Shown here: one piece after another, positions 24,982 through 33,353 of the stretch
How the letters are laid out: every line of letters begins with the position of its first letter
Numbering within the stretch: the first letter of the stretch is position 1
Source: a virus
Taxonomy: Duplodnaviria > Heunggongvirae > Uroviricota > Caudoviricetes
Virus record (IMG/VR): IMGVR_UViG_2663763256_000001
Length of the DNA stretch: 34,992 bases
Reading direction: 5' to 3' (one strand)
Program-made: the position numbers and the translations under genes
Notes under the pieces: model-generated
The model's input: only the letters and a program-made list of their open reading frames with translations
Databases searched by the model: none
Told to the model about the DNA's origin: nothing

Positions 24982-26176
<1,195 letters not shown>

Positions 26177-26261
26177 TTAACTAATCCTCTGGTTTTATTT
26201 CCATGCTCCTCTCCTTTGATGCGAATGCCAGCGGCAATTGAAGCCTGATAGCTAATTTCAC

Positions 26262-26684
26262 TCACAGTACCGCCTCCTGAAAATTACCCTGATAGAAAGC
26301 CAGTACACGCTGCATAGCTTCGCTCTTCCGGCACTCGCGACAGATTATATTCAGGCGCCTGTCGTAGCGGCGTATTTCTCCGTCTGGTAATGACCAGATT
26401 AGGTCCGGATCAACCGCAGATGGTTTCTTCGGCTTTGCCCTTGAGAGCTTTTTACGGGCATTTTGCCAGTCCTTACGCGCCTGTTCAGACGGGAATAACC
26501 CGTAACCAGAGTTGTATACATCGCCACTGGCAACCAGCTCTCTGGCCAGAACGCTCATCAGATATCTTGTTGCCCCAGTTTTAGTTTCCAGTTGTCGTAA
26601 CGTCTCGCGCCCACTTTGGCGTACGAGTTCAACAACCTGCCCTTTAATTTTTTCCCGCTCTTCTTGTGTAAAAACTTTTGCCAC
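26262..26684 (-). CDS. hypothetical protein downstream of the replication initiator
   Basis: 140-aa ORF in the position of a second replication gene. Not recognizably lambda P-like or DnaC-like. Confidence 0.45.
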   Translation of the reverse strand: MAKVFTQEEREKIKGQVVELVRQSGRETLRQLETKTGATRYLMSVLARELVASGDVYNSGYGLFPSEQARKDWQNARKKLSRAKPKKPSAVDPDLIWSLPDGEIRRYDRRLNIICRECRKSEAMQRVLAFYQGNFQEAVL

Positions 26685-26724
26685 AAGCCCTCCTGAAAAT
26701 TACCTCATGACCAGAAATTAACAC

Positions 26725-27801
26725 TTACCCCCTGAAGCCCGGCGGAATTTCGTTATCCGGTTCAGAAATATGATTCACACAACGCTGGTTGTTCGTGCCG
26801 CTTACCGGGAGCAACCAGGGGTTCTCAAAATTCCGGTCCGGTCCAAAAAACGTCGTCGCTCGCTGAACAAATTCCGTTCCCGTTTTCCCGGTAGCCGCCA
26901 AGTATCTTGCGTAACGCCTCACGCCATCCAGCATGGCCTCTGGTGGCACCCCCTCGCGTAATCTGGCCTTCCAGGCACTGAAAGCGGATTTCTTCGGGTT
27001 TGCTCCGGCACGCAACGGGTACTCCCGCCAGACCTGTTCGAACACATCCGGATAATCCACTCGTCCCACAGACTGCCCGGTGTTTTCCGGGACTACCCGA
27101 TCGGCTTCCCGCTGAATGGCGGAATCGGCTTCGGGCTGCTGCAGTTGGTGTGATTGCTCCGGCCTTGCGGTCATCACCTGCTGCACAGCGCCCGAATCGG
27201 CTTTCAGCGCATACGCTGAATCGGCTTCCGGTGTCGTGCCTGCTGGCTGACCAAGATTGACGGTCTGAACATCCCCTGCCTGGTTCGTGGCGTTTTTTAC
27301 GCCATGGACCATAGTGTTTTGATCTTCTTGATCTGTATCTTTATCTGTATCTTTATCTGTCGTGACTCGTCGTGACATATGCGTGACATTTCGTGACGCG
27401 CCGTGACAATCGCCATTTTGTTCCCGCTTTCTTTCCCTCTCTCGCTGCGCCCTCTTGCGCTCTGCAGGAGATTTTGCGGTTTGCGAAATATTGCCGTTGT
27501 CCTCTTTAAGCACCTGGCGTTTTTCCCATCCAGTGATTAAATCACCATCAAGTACCCGCCCCTGCATCGTCTGCAAAATTGAATCAATTACCTCTTCTGT
27601 CACGTCGAGCGCACTTGCCAAATCTTCTGTCGTGACCTCAATGTGACCTCGCGTGACATTTCGTGACGCGCTCACCAGGAGGTGGATATACACTGCCATC
27701 ACTGTTGCAATTGGCTGCCCTGACACCCTGGCAATTGTTCGCCACTTAGGGTCATTTGGCATGTCATGCCATAATCTGAGCCAGGCGTTAGCCATACTCA
27801 C
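26725..27801 (-). CDS. replication initiator (O-like/YdaU-like) carrying the origin iterons
   Basis: 358 aa. Two CGTGAC iteron clusters lie inside the gene, giving the repetitive peptide DKDTDKDTD. Positioned after the cro-like and YdaT-like genes. Confidence 0.55.
   Translation of the reverse strand: MSMANAWLRLWHDMPNDPKWRTIARVSGQPIATVMAVYIHLLVSASRNVTRGHIEVTTEDLASALDVTEEVIDSILQTMQGRVLDGDLITGWEKRQVLKEDNGNISQTAKSPAERKRAQRERERKREQNGDCHGASRNVTHMSRRVTTDKDTDKDTDQEDQNTMVHGVKNATNQAGDVQTVNLGQPAGTTPEADSAYALKADSGAVQQVMTARPEQSHQLQQPEADSAIQREADRVVPENTGQSVGRVDYPDVFEQVWREYPLRAGANPKKSAFSAWKARLREGVPPEAMLDGVRRYARYLAATGKTGTEFVQRATTFFGPDRNFENPWLLPVSGTNNQRCVNHISEPDNEIPPGFRG
27361..27407. repeat. iteron cluster A: five direct CGTGAC repeats at 10-11 bp phasing
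   Basis: CGTGAC begins at 27361, 27371, 27382, 27392 and 27402. Preceded by alternating ATCTGT/ATCTTT hexamer repeats at 27332-27360. Confidence 0.8.
27631..27667. repeat. iteron cluster B: four (C/T)GTGAC repeats at 10-11 bp phasing
   Basis: Repeats begin at 27631, 27642 (TGTGAC variant), 27652 and 27662, plus an inverted GTCACG at 27599-27604. The 21-mer GCGTGACATTTCGTGACGCGC is shared with cluster A. Confidence 0.75.
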
Positions 27802-27866
27802 CTCTTTTGATACCGAATCTTTTTACTCACAAATTGCCGGAAGCGATCCGGTATGAATATTGCGAG

Positions 27867-28292
27867 TCAATGCACAGCCACAATATTTCCTGCAGGGCCA
27901 CCACGATTCATCTGGTTGAAACCAGCGATCGCCACTGCGACAAAATCATCAGCGTCTCTCACCAGTCGTTCCCGCGTCTCCACTAGTTCCCGAAAATAGG
28001 CTGAGCTATGACTGCGCATTCGGGCCACCAGCAGAGGTGGCATTGCTTTTTCGATAGCTGGTAACAACGCCTGAATTTTTTTAACCGCATCAGGGGTGTC
28101 TTTCTCCACCCAGCGGAAAATTTTCTGAGTATTGCGAGCCAGGGCTTCCGGATGGCTGTCGTCATACAGTTCCGGGAACGTCATTCCCAGCTCGAAATAC
28201 GCTTTGGTAATTTTCGCAGCCGGTACTTTTTCGCCGTCCGGATGCGCCCAGGCATTCATCGCCATGCGGATGTGTTCATGCTTGATTTTCAT
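27867..28292 (-). CDS. YdaT-like protein (cII-position)
   Basis: 141 aa starting MKIKHEHI, matching the recalled YdaT N-terminus of the Rac prophage. Lies between the cro-like gene and the replication initiator. Confidence 0.5.
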   Translation of the reverse strand: MKIKHEHIRMAMNAWAHPDGEKVPAAKITKAYFELGMTFPELYDDSHPEALARNTQKIFRWVEKDTPDAVKKIQALLPAIEKAMPPLLVARMRSHSSAYFRELVETRERLVRDADDFVAVAIAGFNQMNRGGPAGNIVAVH

Positions 28293-28543
28293 GAATCAAC
28301 TCCCATCAGCTTTTTCGTAGTAGTTTTATTCCTGCCAATAGTTAAAATTGCATCGGCAGAAAATAATCCGTTTGATGCAAGAGCGATTTTTTCAGCGTAA
28401 TTTGTTTCGCCGGTATATTCTGTGCGAGGCAATTTTCCGTTATCCATCCATTTATAGATTGCTCTTTGGCTGACACCACAAACGTCGGCCACAACAGCAA
28501 CGCGAACAGTTTTGATTACATCTTCAAGTGTTTTCTGGTTCAT
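28289..28543 (-). CDS. Cro-like HTH regulator
   Basis: 84 aa from MNQKTLEDV with HTH segment (VADVCGVSQRAIYKWMDNGKLP). GAGG RBS. Divergent from the repressor gene. Confidence 0.6.
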   Translation of the reverse strand: MNQKTLEDVIKTVRVAVVADVCGVSQRAIYKWMDNGKLPRTEYTGETNYAEKIALASNGLFSADAILTIGRNKTTTKKLMGVDS

Positions 28544-28622
28544 ATCACCCTCACAATGTGAACTTTGAGTACATGCTATAACAGAACTGACAGTACATTC
28601 AAGAGCGAATATCATTGAACTT
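28544..28622. promoter_or_regulatory. divergent promoter/operator region of the immunity switch
   Basis: 79-bp intergenic region between divergent HTH genes. AGTACAT occurs twice (28567-28573 and 28592-28598). Confidence 0.4.
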
Positions 28623-29042
28623 ATGGTTCATGAAGATAAAGCGCGTAAAGAGTTCGCCAGTAGGCTTGCGCTAGCCTGTGAAAACGCTGGTTATGAACAA
28701 CATGGAAGGCAGGCAGAAATTGCCCGTCGAATGAAATTAACACCAAAAGCGGTTAGCAAATGGTTTAATGGCGAAACAATTCCTCGCCGGGAGAAATTAA
28801 GGGAATTAGCAACACTAATAGGAACAACACCAACCTATCTTTTGGGAGAGGATACAGAAGAAAGTGGACAGGTACGTTTCTATCAGGAGTTAAATCCAAG
28901 ACAAAAAATCATCATTGACCTTCTGGACGAGCTCCCTGACAGTGAGACAGATGAACTTTTAAAAACTCTTGAAGAGAAAAAACAGAAGTACAATGCAATT
29001 TACGAAGAGTTAGCACGAAAGAAAAAACAAAAAGCCTCTTAA
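28623..29042 (+). CDS. DicA/RacR-like XRE-family repressor
   Basis: 139 aa with N-terminal HTH (GRQAEIARRMKLTPKAVSKWFNGETIP) and C-terminal segment IIIDLLDELPDSETDELLK resembling DicA LELLELFNALPESEQ. Confidence 0.65.
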   Translation: MVHEDKARKEFASRLALACENAGYEQHGRQAEIARRMKLTPKAVSKWFNGETIPRREKLRELATLIGTTPTYLLGEDTEESGQVRFYQELNPRQKIIIDLLDELPDSETDELLKTLEEKKQKYNAIYEELARKKKQKAS

Positions 29043-30881: not shown

Positions 30882-33353
30882 ATGAGTAAAGTCTTTATTT
30901 GCGCCGCCATTCCGGACGAACAGGCAATAAAGGAAGAAGGTGCCGTCGCTGTAGCCACTGCCATTGAAGCCGGTGATGAACGTCGCGCCCGCGCAAAATT
31001 TCACTGGCAATTCCTGGAACATTATCCGGCTGCTCAGGACTGCGCTTATAAATTTCTTGTTTGCGAGGATAAACCCGGTATACCCCGCCCTGCCCTCGAT
31101 TCCTGGGATGCTGAATATATGCAGGAAAACCGCTGGGATGAGGCGTCTGCTTCCTTTGTCCCGGTCGAGACTGAATCCGATCCGATGAACGTCACTTTTG
31201 ACAACCTAGCCCCTGAAGTACAGAACGCTGTCATGGTTAAGTTCGACACATGTGAAAACATCACTGTTGATATGGTGATTAGCGCACAGGAATTGTTGCA
31301 GGAAGACATGGCAACATTCGACGGCCATATCGTTGAAGCGTTGATGAAAATGCCAGAAGTTAACGCTATGTATCCGGAGCTTAAGCTGCATGCCATCGGG
31401 TGGGTTAAGCATAAATGTAAGCCTGGTGCCAAATGGCCCGAAATTCAGGCAGAGATGCGCATCTGGAAAAAACGTCGCGAAGGTGAACGCAAGGAAGCCG
31501 GAAAATACACGTCTGTTGTTGATCTCGCCCGCGCCAGAGCCAATCAACAGCACACTGAAAATTCAACAGGAAAAATCAACCCGGTCATTGCTGCCATTCA
31601 TCGCGAATACAAGCAGACATGGAAAACACTGGATGACGAACTGGCCTACGCTCTCTGGCCTGGTGATGTGGATGCCGGAAACATTGACGGCAGCATCCAT
31701 CGCTGGGCAAAAAATGAAGTTATCGACAACGACCGCGAAGACTGGAAGCGTATCTCGGCATCAATGCGCAAACAGCCTGATGCCCTTCGCTACGACCGCC
31801 AGACTATTTTTGGCCTTGTCCGTGAACGTCCGATCGACATTCACAAAGCCCCTGTGGCACTGAACAAATACATTACTGAATACCTGACTACAAAGGGCGT
31901 GTTTGAAGATGAAGGAACAAATCAGAGCGCAACTGATACTCTCTCGTCGCCAGTACCAGAAACTGATGCAGTGGAAACGGCAATTCCAGACAACGAAAAA
32001 ACCGAATGCAAAGTGGAAGTCGAACCATCTGTAGAACGTGAGGGGCCGTTCTACTTCCTCTTCACCGACAAGGATGGCGAAAAATACGGTCGCGCAAATA
32101 AACTTTCTGGTCTGGATAAGGCGCTGTCTGCTGGGGCTACTGAAATCACGAAAGAAGAATATTTCGCCCGCAAAAACGGTACATACTCAGGTTCACAACA
32201 AAATACTGGTGCATCTGACACGACCGCACAACCAGGGTCAGTAAAAGTTACCGCTGACGAAGTAAACAAAATTATGCAGGCAGCCAATATCAGCCAGCCT
32301 GACGCCGATAAGTTGCTTGCTGCATCACGTGGTGAATTTGTTGAAGGGATTAGTGACCCGAATGATCCGAAATGGGTTAAGGGGATCCAGACCCGCGATT
32401 CTGTGAACCAGAACCAGCATGAATCGGAACGGAACTACCAAAAAGCGGAACAAAACAGCACAAATGCGTTACAAAACGAGCCAGAAACGAAACAGCCTGA
32501 ACCAGTGGCGCAACAGGAAGTGGAAAAAGTCTGCACCGCCTGCGGTCAGACCGGCGGCGGCAACTGCCCTGATTGTGGCGCGGTGATGGGCGACGCAACA
32601 TACCAGGAAACATTCGATGAAGAGTATCAGGTTGAAGTTCAGGAAGATGATCCGGAGGAAATGGAAGGCGCTGAACATCCACACAAGGAGAACACTGGCG
32701 GCAATCAGCATCACAATAGCGATAATGAAACTGGCGAGACGGCAGATCACTCAATTAAGGTGAACGGTCATCACGAAATCACATCCACCAGCAGGACGTG
32801 TGACCATCTAATGATCGACCTTGAAACCATGGGAAAAAATCCTGATGCCCCGATCATCTCAATAGGTGCAATATTTTTCGATCCGCAAACCGGAGATATG
32901 GGACCGGAATTTAGTAAGACTATCGATCTGGAAACTGCTGGCGGAGTCATTGATCGGGACACCATTAAATGGTGGCTTAAGCAATCACGCGAAGCGCAAT
33001 CTGCCATTATGACCGATGAAATCCCGTTAGATGATGCACTGTTACAATTACGGGAATTTATCGACGAAAACTCCGGTGAATTTTTTGTTCAGGTTTGGGG
33101 AAATGGAGCCAACTTCGACAACACGATTTTGCGCCGTTCATACGAACGGCAGGGGATCCCCTGCCCGTGGCGTTACTACAACGATCGCGATGTACGCACA
33201 ATCGTTGAGCTGGGGAAAGCCATAGACTTCGATGCCAGAACGGCTATTCCATTCGAAGGTGAGCGCCATAATGCACTTGATGACGCCCGTTACCAGGCAA
33301 AATACGTTTCAGTTATCTGGCAAAAACTGATCCCGAGTCAGGCTGATTCTTAA
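30882..33353 (+). CDS. ydfE: large YdfE-like protein: acidic N-terminal region, Cys4 zinc ribbon, C-terminal DEDDh 3'-5' exonuclease domain
   Basis: 823 aa. N-terminus MSKVFICAAIPDEQAIKEEG resembles the K-12 ydfE fragment. CTACGQTGGGNCPDCG zinc ribbon. C-terminal motifs MIDLETMG, VWGNGANFDNTIL and HNALDDARYQA fit the DnaQ-like Exo I/II/III pattern. Confidence 0.7.
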   Translation: MSKVFICAAIPDEQAIKEEGAVAVATAIEAGDERRARAKFHWQFLEHYPAAQDCAYKFLVCEDKPGIPRPALDSWDAEYMQENRWDEASASFVPVETESDPMNVTFDNLAPEVQNAVMVKFDTCENITVDMVISAQELLQEDMATFDGHIVEALMKMPEVNAMYPELKLHAIGWVKHKCKPGAKWPEIQAEMRIWKKRREGERKEAGKYTSVVDLARARANQQHTENSTGKINPVIAAIHREYKQTWKTLDDELAYALWPGDVDAGNIDGSIHRWAKNEVIDNDREDWKRISASMRKQPDALRYDRQTIFGLVRERPIDIHKAPVALNKYITEYLTTKGVFEDEGTNQSATDTLSSPVPETDAVETAIPDNEKTECKVEVEPSVEREGPFYFLFTDKDGEKYGRANKLSGLDKALSAGATEITKEEYFARKNGTYSGSQQNTGASDTTAQPGSVKVTADEVNKIMQAANISQPDADKLLAASRGEFVEGISDPNDPKWVKGIQTRDSVNQNQHESERNYQKAEQNSTNALQNEPETKQPEPVAQQEVEKVCTACGQTGGGNCPDCGAVMGDATYQETFDEEYQVEVQEDDPEEMEGAEHPHKENTGGNQHHNSDNETGETADHSIKVNGHHEITSTSRTCDHLMIDLETMGKNPDAPIISIGAIFFDPQTGDMGPEFSKTIDLETAGGVIDRDTIKWWLKQSREAQSAIMTDEIPLDDALLQLREFIDENSGEFFVQVWGNGANFDNTILRRSYERQGIPCPWRYYNDRDVRTIVELGKAIDFDARTAIPFEGERHNALDDARYQAKYVSVIWQKLIPSQADS

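Follow-up and report, generated by a model that had tools for sequence, protein, structure and literature searches.

A probable iteron-type replication origin built into the initiator gene of an Escherichia coli lambdoid prophage

Introduction

The iterons of bacteriophage lambda are inverted repeats of 19 bp. Together with an AT-rich tract, they make up the origin, ori, in the middle of the initiator gene O (PMC7466680). In Bacillus phage SPP1, the origin oriL likewise consists of repeats and a DNA-unwinding element (DUE) inside gene 38, where they are bound by the replisome organizer G38P, and in vitro a fragment of 356 bp is enough (PMC6316719, PMC5737612). A 2025 survey described O-only replication modules in phage LLS and in 34 of 314 lambdoid phages; the replication of these phages "is not yet understood", and no origin is described there (PMC12315714).

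Here we analyse a locus within an E. coli lambdoid prophage. The whole stretch of DNA examined, of 34,992 nucleotides (35 kb), is referred to below as the window. An initial annotation, made from the sequence, had likened the locus to the lambda arrangement of ori inside O. The layout stands, since an array within the part of the initiator gene that codes for an inter-domain linker is followed in gene sense by an AT-rich tract, as in lambda (PMC7466680), but the protein is no homologue of O and Pfam gives no match to the whole initiator at E<=0.01. Other likenesses are to the variants of lambda and Stx phages, in which iteron copy number also varies between relatives, adding residues to the protein, and the N-domain and C-domain also recombine as modules. 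Unlike the large, dimer-bound inverted-repeat iterons of lambda, the sites are direct cores of 6-7 bp that recur every 10-11 bp, which agrees with the earlier description of them as shorter and different. A second array, also unlike lambda, lies inside the coding sequence of a folded DNA-binding domain, and in place of a P gene the downstream gene is of the DUF977 type.

Set against the published descriptions of SPP1, the locus is similar in that direct repeats and a presumed AT-rich DUE lie inside the gene of the organizer itself. The initiator is, like G38P, a non-AAA+ protein; the NCBI name for the cluster of this 358-aa protein is identical ('phage replisome organizer'), and there is a weak collinear match to PF09681, although the sequence similarity falls under the Pfam threshold. 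SPP1 has its own loader (G39P), its own helicase (G40P) and a second, distant origin (oriR), whereas here both arrays lie within one gene and the ORFs scanned encode neither loader nor helicase. The single replication gene and the lack of a helicase or loader recall the O-only modules, a likeness of gene content alone (PMC12315714). The two tandem winged-helix domains acting on 17-22-bp iterons that mark plasmid iteron Rep proteins of the RepA/pi type were not found at this locus.

Different from lambda and SPP1 are the protein family, the very short sites spaced at one helical turn, the second array in the coding sequence of a folded domain, and the one-gene module. We found no paper describing these repeats. 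The locus would place the logic of lambda and SPP1 in an unstudied, widespread family without a helicase-loader gene. Locating a probable origin, its site motif, an unwinding tract and a DnaT-like tail opens O-only replication to experiment, and the family may yield compact one-gene replicons as tools.

Results and discussion

The prophage and its initiator gene

The gene content of the prophage includes an integrase, a 3'-5' exonuclease, an immunity region, a Q antiterminator, lysis genes, terminase, portal and capsid genes. Positions 26200-28700 are 100% identical to several complete genomes, for example that of O25:H16 F5505-C1. The initiator gene in the ORF list (26725..27801, minus strand) encodes 358 aa from a GTG start; in relatives the start is an ATG two codons further in than the GTG of the window. 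The encoded protein consists of an N-terminal winged helix, a disordered linker, a helical C-domain and a DnaT-like tail, and it matches phrog_3729, 'replication initiation protein', at 2e-257. A cI-like repressor, a cro-like gene and a YdaT/cII-like gene are its upstream neighbours. On the downstream side lies a DUF977/LygF/Ren-like gene (26262..26684, minus strand; PF06163 at 1.6e-29; phrog_142), followed by an IS5 element. The DUF977/LygF/Ren-like neighbour also stands beside the initiator gene in phages Tritos and Evi. Within 26200-28700, a scan for promoters and terminators returned counts at chance level.

The initiator module is present in at least 1540 of 5426 complete E. coli genomes at a coverage cut-off of 80% or more. 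There is a median of two matching places per genome and a maximum of 11. Very many database entries for the initiator are labelled 'partial' and are 160-200 aa long; assemblies seem to break inside the gene, probably because several prophages of a genome have the C-terminal half in common.

Two phased arrays and an adjacent AT-rich tract

Two clusters of CGTGAC repeats had been described inside the initiator coding sequence at a phasing of 10-11 bp, and both lie within the ORF at 26725-27801. Cluster A (27361..27407, minus strand) comprises five GTCACG iterons in the linker-coding part of the gene, codons 132-147. All five copies are exact and start, as CGTGAC on the plus strand, at 27361, 27371, 27382, 27392 and 27402, with spacings of 10, 11, 10 and 10 (nt 395, 405, 415, 426 and 436 in gene sense). 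Cluster B (27631..27667, minus strand) codes for aa 45-57, which form the end of helix 31-47 together with the loop that leads to the helix-turn-helix (HTH). Three of the four copies reported here are exact (CGTGAC on the plus strand at 27631, 27652 and 27662), but the one at 27642 is a TGTGAC variant, and the spacings are 11, 10 and 10. Read in gene sense, cluster B is GTCACG, GTCACG, GTCACA and GTCACG at nt 135, 145, 155 and 166. The one inverted copy that had been noted is present at 27599..27604 (GTCACG on the plus strand, CGTGAC on the minus strand; gene nt 198) and codes for D-V-T, where the presumed recognition helix begins. Clusters A and B are 270 bp apart and, as annotated, have a 21-bp block in common, GCGTGACATTTCGTGACGCGC, present without mismatch at 27381-27401 and 27651-27671. 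An 11-bp block, TCTGTCGTGAC, also occurs in both, at 27356 and 27626.

Cluster A abuts, on its downstream side in gene sense, a tract (27310..27360, minus strand) that is AT-rich, purine-rich on the sense strand and hexamer-periodic, and that is presumed to be the DNA-unwinding element. The tract is made up of three copies of GATAAAGATACA followed by GATCAAGAAGATC, and its GC content of 0.25-0.30 is the minimum of the gene. The hexamer repeats reported beside cluster A are indeed there, as three 12-nt units TCTT(G/T)ATCTGT(A/C) at 27326-27361, but the gene is on the minus strand and they therefore lie downstream of the cluster in gene sense, not upstream. The full order in gene sense is cluster B, the inverted copy, cluster A and the AT-rich hexamer tract. 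Two GATC (Dam) sites occur inside the AT tract at 27321-27324 and 27330-27333 and are invariant in six close relatives.

These two same-sense arrays of 6-7-bp sites, phased at one helical turn and followed by a purine-skewed AT tract, are part of the grounds on which we propose that the region is probably the iteron-type replication origin of the prophage, with its unwinding element, built into the initiator gene. Cluster A is presumed to be the core initiator-binding array of this origin. We hypothesize that the N-terminal DnaD-like winged helix binds as monomers, arranged head-to-tail on a single face of each array, and that the two arrays are then bridged or wrapped into an O-some-like complex which strains, and then melts, the adjacent AT tract. 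Cluster A and the AT tract probably constitute the core origin and cluster B an auxiliary array, because a few relatives are without a recognisable cluster B. The origin may be activated, as in lambda, by transcription through the gene from an early rightward-type promoter.

The arrays could instead bind the initiator mainly for control, with the real origin elsewhere. Control might take the form of autorepression, a transcription or translation roadblock of the initiator's own gene, copy-number handcuffing or exclusion of related phages. We regard this as unlikely. It would suit cluster B, which lies in a structured coding part, 270 bp from the AT tract, and is dispensable in some relatives, and it is generally known that plasmid iteron systems use additional arrays for control. 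However, the window offers no other array of the motif. CGTGAC occurs 18 times in the 35 kb against 14 expected, which overall is no excess over chance; nine of these 18 copies fall in 27361-27667, the remaining ones are isolated, and no second array of the motif, analogous to oriR, was found elsewhere in the window. Moreover, cluster A almost always abuts an AT-rich tract, the classic signature of an origin, and the proven origins of lambda and SPP1 share the layout (PMC7466680, PMC5737612).

Two further elements near the arrays were considered and set aside. An imperfect palindrome of 13 pairs (27281..27311) lies directly beyond the AT tract and is reminiscent of the inverted repeat that borders lambda ori on the right. 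It was rejected as a family feature (hairpins at this position score 4.8 versus 3.6 for shuffles in 108 relatives), and it is probably not part of the conserved design. A candidate DnaA box before cluster B, ATATCCACC in gene sense, has two mismatches to the consensus, is absent in a Pseudomonas relative and was dropped.

Conservation of the arrays and switching of their motif

A first scan of viral contigs recovered near-identical E. coli prophages only and was redone with a distant query. The relatives then assembled were divergent sequences homologous to the N-terminal 125 aa, drawn from bacterial genomes, phage records, viral contigs and metagenomes. Arrays were scored by the hexamer repeated most often in the first ~520-560 nt that follow the DPKWR codon, both clusters being counted when each zone held two or more copies of it. 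An absence of the repeats from functional relatives had been named in the initial annotation as one observation that would count against it. What we found is that both clusters are kept in 56 of 64 distinct viral and metagenome loci and in 42 of 59 bacterial-genome loci. Clusters occupy corresponding gene positions in about 100 divergent relatives from Proteobacteria and phages, and the distance between successive copies is 10 nt in 210 cases, 11 nt in 26 and 21 nt in 13. Under this strict test, cluster B is lacking or degenerate in a minority of relatives (for example L133, L134, L147, L183 and L231) and is therefore possibly not essential. In 58 of 63 relatives, cluster A is followed by a tract rich in AT and, on the sense strand, in purines (mean GC of 0.38 versus 0.55); AGATAAAGATA words often recur in this tract irrespective of the iteron class. 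The N-domain family as a whole is spread through Proteobacteria and their phages; its profile matched 3,557 cluster representatives at 50% identity (E<=1e-3).

Inside each genome both clusters use one motif, which varies between lineages around a common part, NNNACG(C). GTCACG is the motif of Escherichia, Shigella, Serratia, Erwinia, Pseudomonas, Bordetella, Aeromonas phage pAEv1818 and others. CGAACGC is found in Janthinobacterium, Methylibium, Rhodoferax and most metagenome contigs, GTAACGC in Pantoea, Enterobacter and Marinobacter, and GCAACGC in Ralstonia phage Firinga, at 37% identity; GTGACGC and GGAACGC were each seen at single loci. The inverted copy is kept within the GTCAC class, and in the CGAACGC class it is not replaced by the cognate motif. 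A joint switch of motif in two arrays that overlie differently constrained coding sequence is what would be predicted of a binding site and its binder. The series GTCACG, CGAACGC, GTAACGC and GCAACGC would represent natural specificity switches, suited to the study of initiator-origin co-evolution under coding constraint.

The same comparison bears on whether another protein, such as a cII/YdaT-like regulator, a repressor or a host factor, binds the repeats in regulating the early operon. The initiator gene does come immediately after the immunity region and the YdaT-like gene, as such a role would have it. Yet the arrays accompany the N-domain coding sequence in genomes where the neighbouring regulators are unrelated, being of the P22-Cro/CII type in Pseudomonas, while none is recognisable in Ralstonia phage Firinga and HNH genes take their place in metagenome contigs. 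The motif class, moreover, tracks the N-domain lineage, and we consider a different binder very improbable.

In some metagenome relatives (P0038, P0058, P0059 and P0070; L088 3508-4008), the N-domain is fused to, or lies just after, an HNH endonuclease domain.

Selection on the repeats as DNA

The eight same-strand copies of one 6-mer within 320 bp are the maximum for the window, and 200 Markov shuffles never gave more than five. The nine copies are spread over reading frames 0, 1 and 2 and are read as SR, VT, GH and CH. When the gene was recoded synonymously 2000 times, keeping the same protein and the local codon usage, the mean number of GTCACG copies was 0.73 and the maximum four, versus eight observed.

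To assess variation among close relatives, we compared 42 distinct alleles carried by prophages and phages of E. coli and Shigella. Only 3 of 45 sites are variable in the GTCAC cores, versus 13 of 39 in the spacers inside the clusters (Fisher p=0.002); the remaining 5' part of the gene has 67 variable sites out of 354 among the same alleles. Length variants correspond to whole units, with 21 bp amounting to two iterons in cluster B, an insertion that keeps the reading frame, and 12 bp to one unit of the AT tract. The copy number of cluster A ranges from five to six among close relatives. These patterns indicate purifying selection on the GTCAC cores and repeats that are selected as DNA rather than arising as a by-product of the protein.

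That the repeats simply mirror a recurring peptide motif or low-complexity protein (SRNVT... / DKDTDKD), with no role as DNA, a reading invited by the double occurrence of ASRNVT in the protein and by DKDT repeats that resemble a low-complexity linker, is scarcely credible, because the copies occur in all three frames (VT, SR, CH, GH) and the recoding control does not reproduce them, the spacing of 10 or 11 nt is no multiple of three, the cores are conserved while flanking codons drift, and the motif switches jointly in both clusters.

A 374-aa allele from E. coli GCA_049255455.1 (L174 2501-3625) carries six and six GTCAC copies, versus four and five in the window. Its extra cluster B copies come from a 21-bp in-frame insertion, which adds TCHGVSR-type residues to the folded domain.

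The initiator protein

The N-terminal winged-helix domain, about aa 1-95 (27517..27801, minus strand), is presumed to be the origin-binding module. Its best fold matches are DnaD-NTD and generic winged-helix domains. PF09681 (Phage_rep_org_N) matches it below threshold (E 0.042, 14.3 bits versus a cut-off of 23.3) and does so collinearly, with aa 7-94 aligned to profile positions 1-88 of 121; of 28 relatives, only 3 match. The initiator is best described as a DnaD-like winged-helix replisome organizer that is 'O-like' in role only. DnaD itself, a Firmicute protein of replication initiation and restart, is a host protein recruited by DnaA and is not known to bind iterons sequence-specifically at sites within the gene that encodes it.

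In the structure model, the part of the N-domain coded by cluster B is confidently folded. Cluster A falls in the linker between two folded domains. Confidence of the model is low at aa 98-109 and aa 200-245, and the model excludes the cluster A stretch, aa 132-147. The HTH core with its recognition helix, AMQGRVL, is constant across motif classes. The only parts of the winged helix that differ systematically between classes are aa 46-57 and 66-68, which are the translation of cluster B and of the inverted copy; the residues are SRNVTRGH..VT / DVT with GTCACG and SNATERGRTQ with CGAACGC. Binding sites and their reader might thus be encoded by the same nucleotides, with these residues helping to read the three variable bases, although we think this improbable. 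If true, a change of iteron would alter the site and its reader in one step, which would explain the joint specificity switch of both arrays and the protein.

At about aa 246-334 (26800..27066, minus strand) follows a folded helical C-domain, which is presumed to recruit the helicase and to be exchangeable between phages. The C-terminal tail that follows, GTNNQRCVNHISEPDNEIPPGFRG (26728..26799, minus strand), resembles the flexible C-terminal tail of the host protein DnaT (primosomal protein I). Its 24 residues, the last of the initiator, are identical to 6aep_A at 16 of 24 positions and also align to the last residues of 9zbt_D and 2ru8_A; in a sequence search of solved structures with the initiator, the tail was the sole part to match. 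NCBIfam likewise recognises only this segment (NF002770, aa 335-358), which fits the DnaT tail pattern ...SEPDxxIPPGFRG. Unlike DnaT, the initiator has no similarity to the DnaT N-domain, and the model of the DnaT C-terminal three-helix ssDNA-binding domain (PF17948) does not match the C-domain of the window. A DnaT-like tail is also present on the initiator of phage 75/02 Stx, and a PPGF version on that of Aeromonas phage pAEv1818. The resemblance suggests mimicry of some DnaT interaction. A review describes the DnaT tail as a highly flexible segment of 20 residues (PMC5778457), and a paper on the preprimosome names no partner for it (PMC13377028).

Proposed helicase recruitment and modularity

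The initial annotation saw no P-like or DnaC-like loader downstream of the initiator gene, and our results agree. The gene at 26262-26684 is the DUF977/LygF/Ren-like gene, and the other large ORFs scanned in the prophage gave no match to a helicase or loader domain. Nor is there a helicase or loader gene in Tritos and Evi, viable phages that carry the same initiator gene and neighbours. With no helicase or loader gene of phage origin, we infer that the C-domain and DnaT-like tail would bring in the host DnaB-DnaC or primosome machinery.

Combinations of domains in relatives are varied. The N-domain and both arrays occur with the C-domain and tail, and with no loader, in the window, in phages Tritos, Evi and vB_Eco-606R7, and in others. 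In Aeromonas phage pAEv1818, the N-domain is joined to a DnaT-CTD-like domain and a DnaC-like loader is present, and in Ralstonia phage Firinga it is found with another C-domain and a DnaB-like helicase. In Pseudomonas aeruginosa CP065865 (L090 4001-6725), the N-domain and both arrays form a stand-alone gene of 160 aa, followed by a 135-aa ORF and then a 609-aa Toprim-DnaB primase-helicase. This gene order implies that the origin-binding module works with quite different helicase systems. The converse arrangement is seen in phage 75/02 Stx, where the C-domain and tail of the window's type stand behind an unrelated N-domain and a DnaC-like loader is present. Tail and loader thus occur together, and the tail alone cannot explain the loader-less state. 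The combinations fit recombination, within the linker, between an origin-binding N-module and a helicase-recruiting C-module.

Other features of the prophage

The IS5 element lies at 25116-26108, just past the DUF977/LygF gene, and contains a transposase ORF of 330 aa. Phages Tritos and Evi have no IS5 at the corresponding place, and the prophage may therefore be damaged downstream of its replication module. On the other side of the initiator gene, positions 30882-33353 encode an 823-aa protein whose sole recognised domain is a C-terminal Rv2179c-like 3'-5' exonuclease. The protein, with its long uncharacterised N-terminal part, is named exonuclease VIII in related phages.
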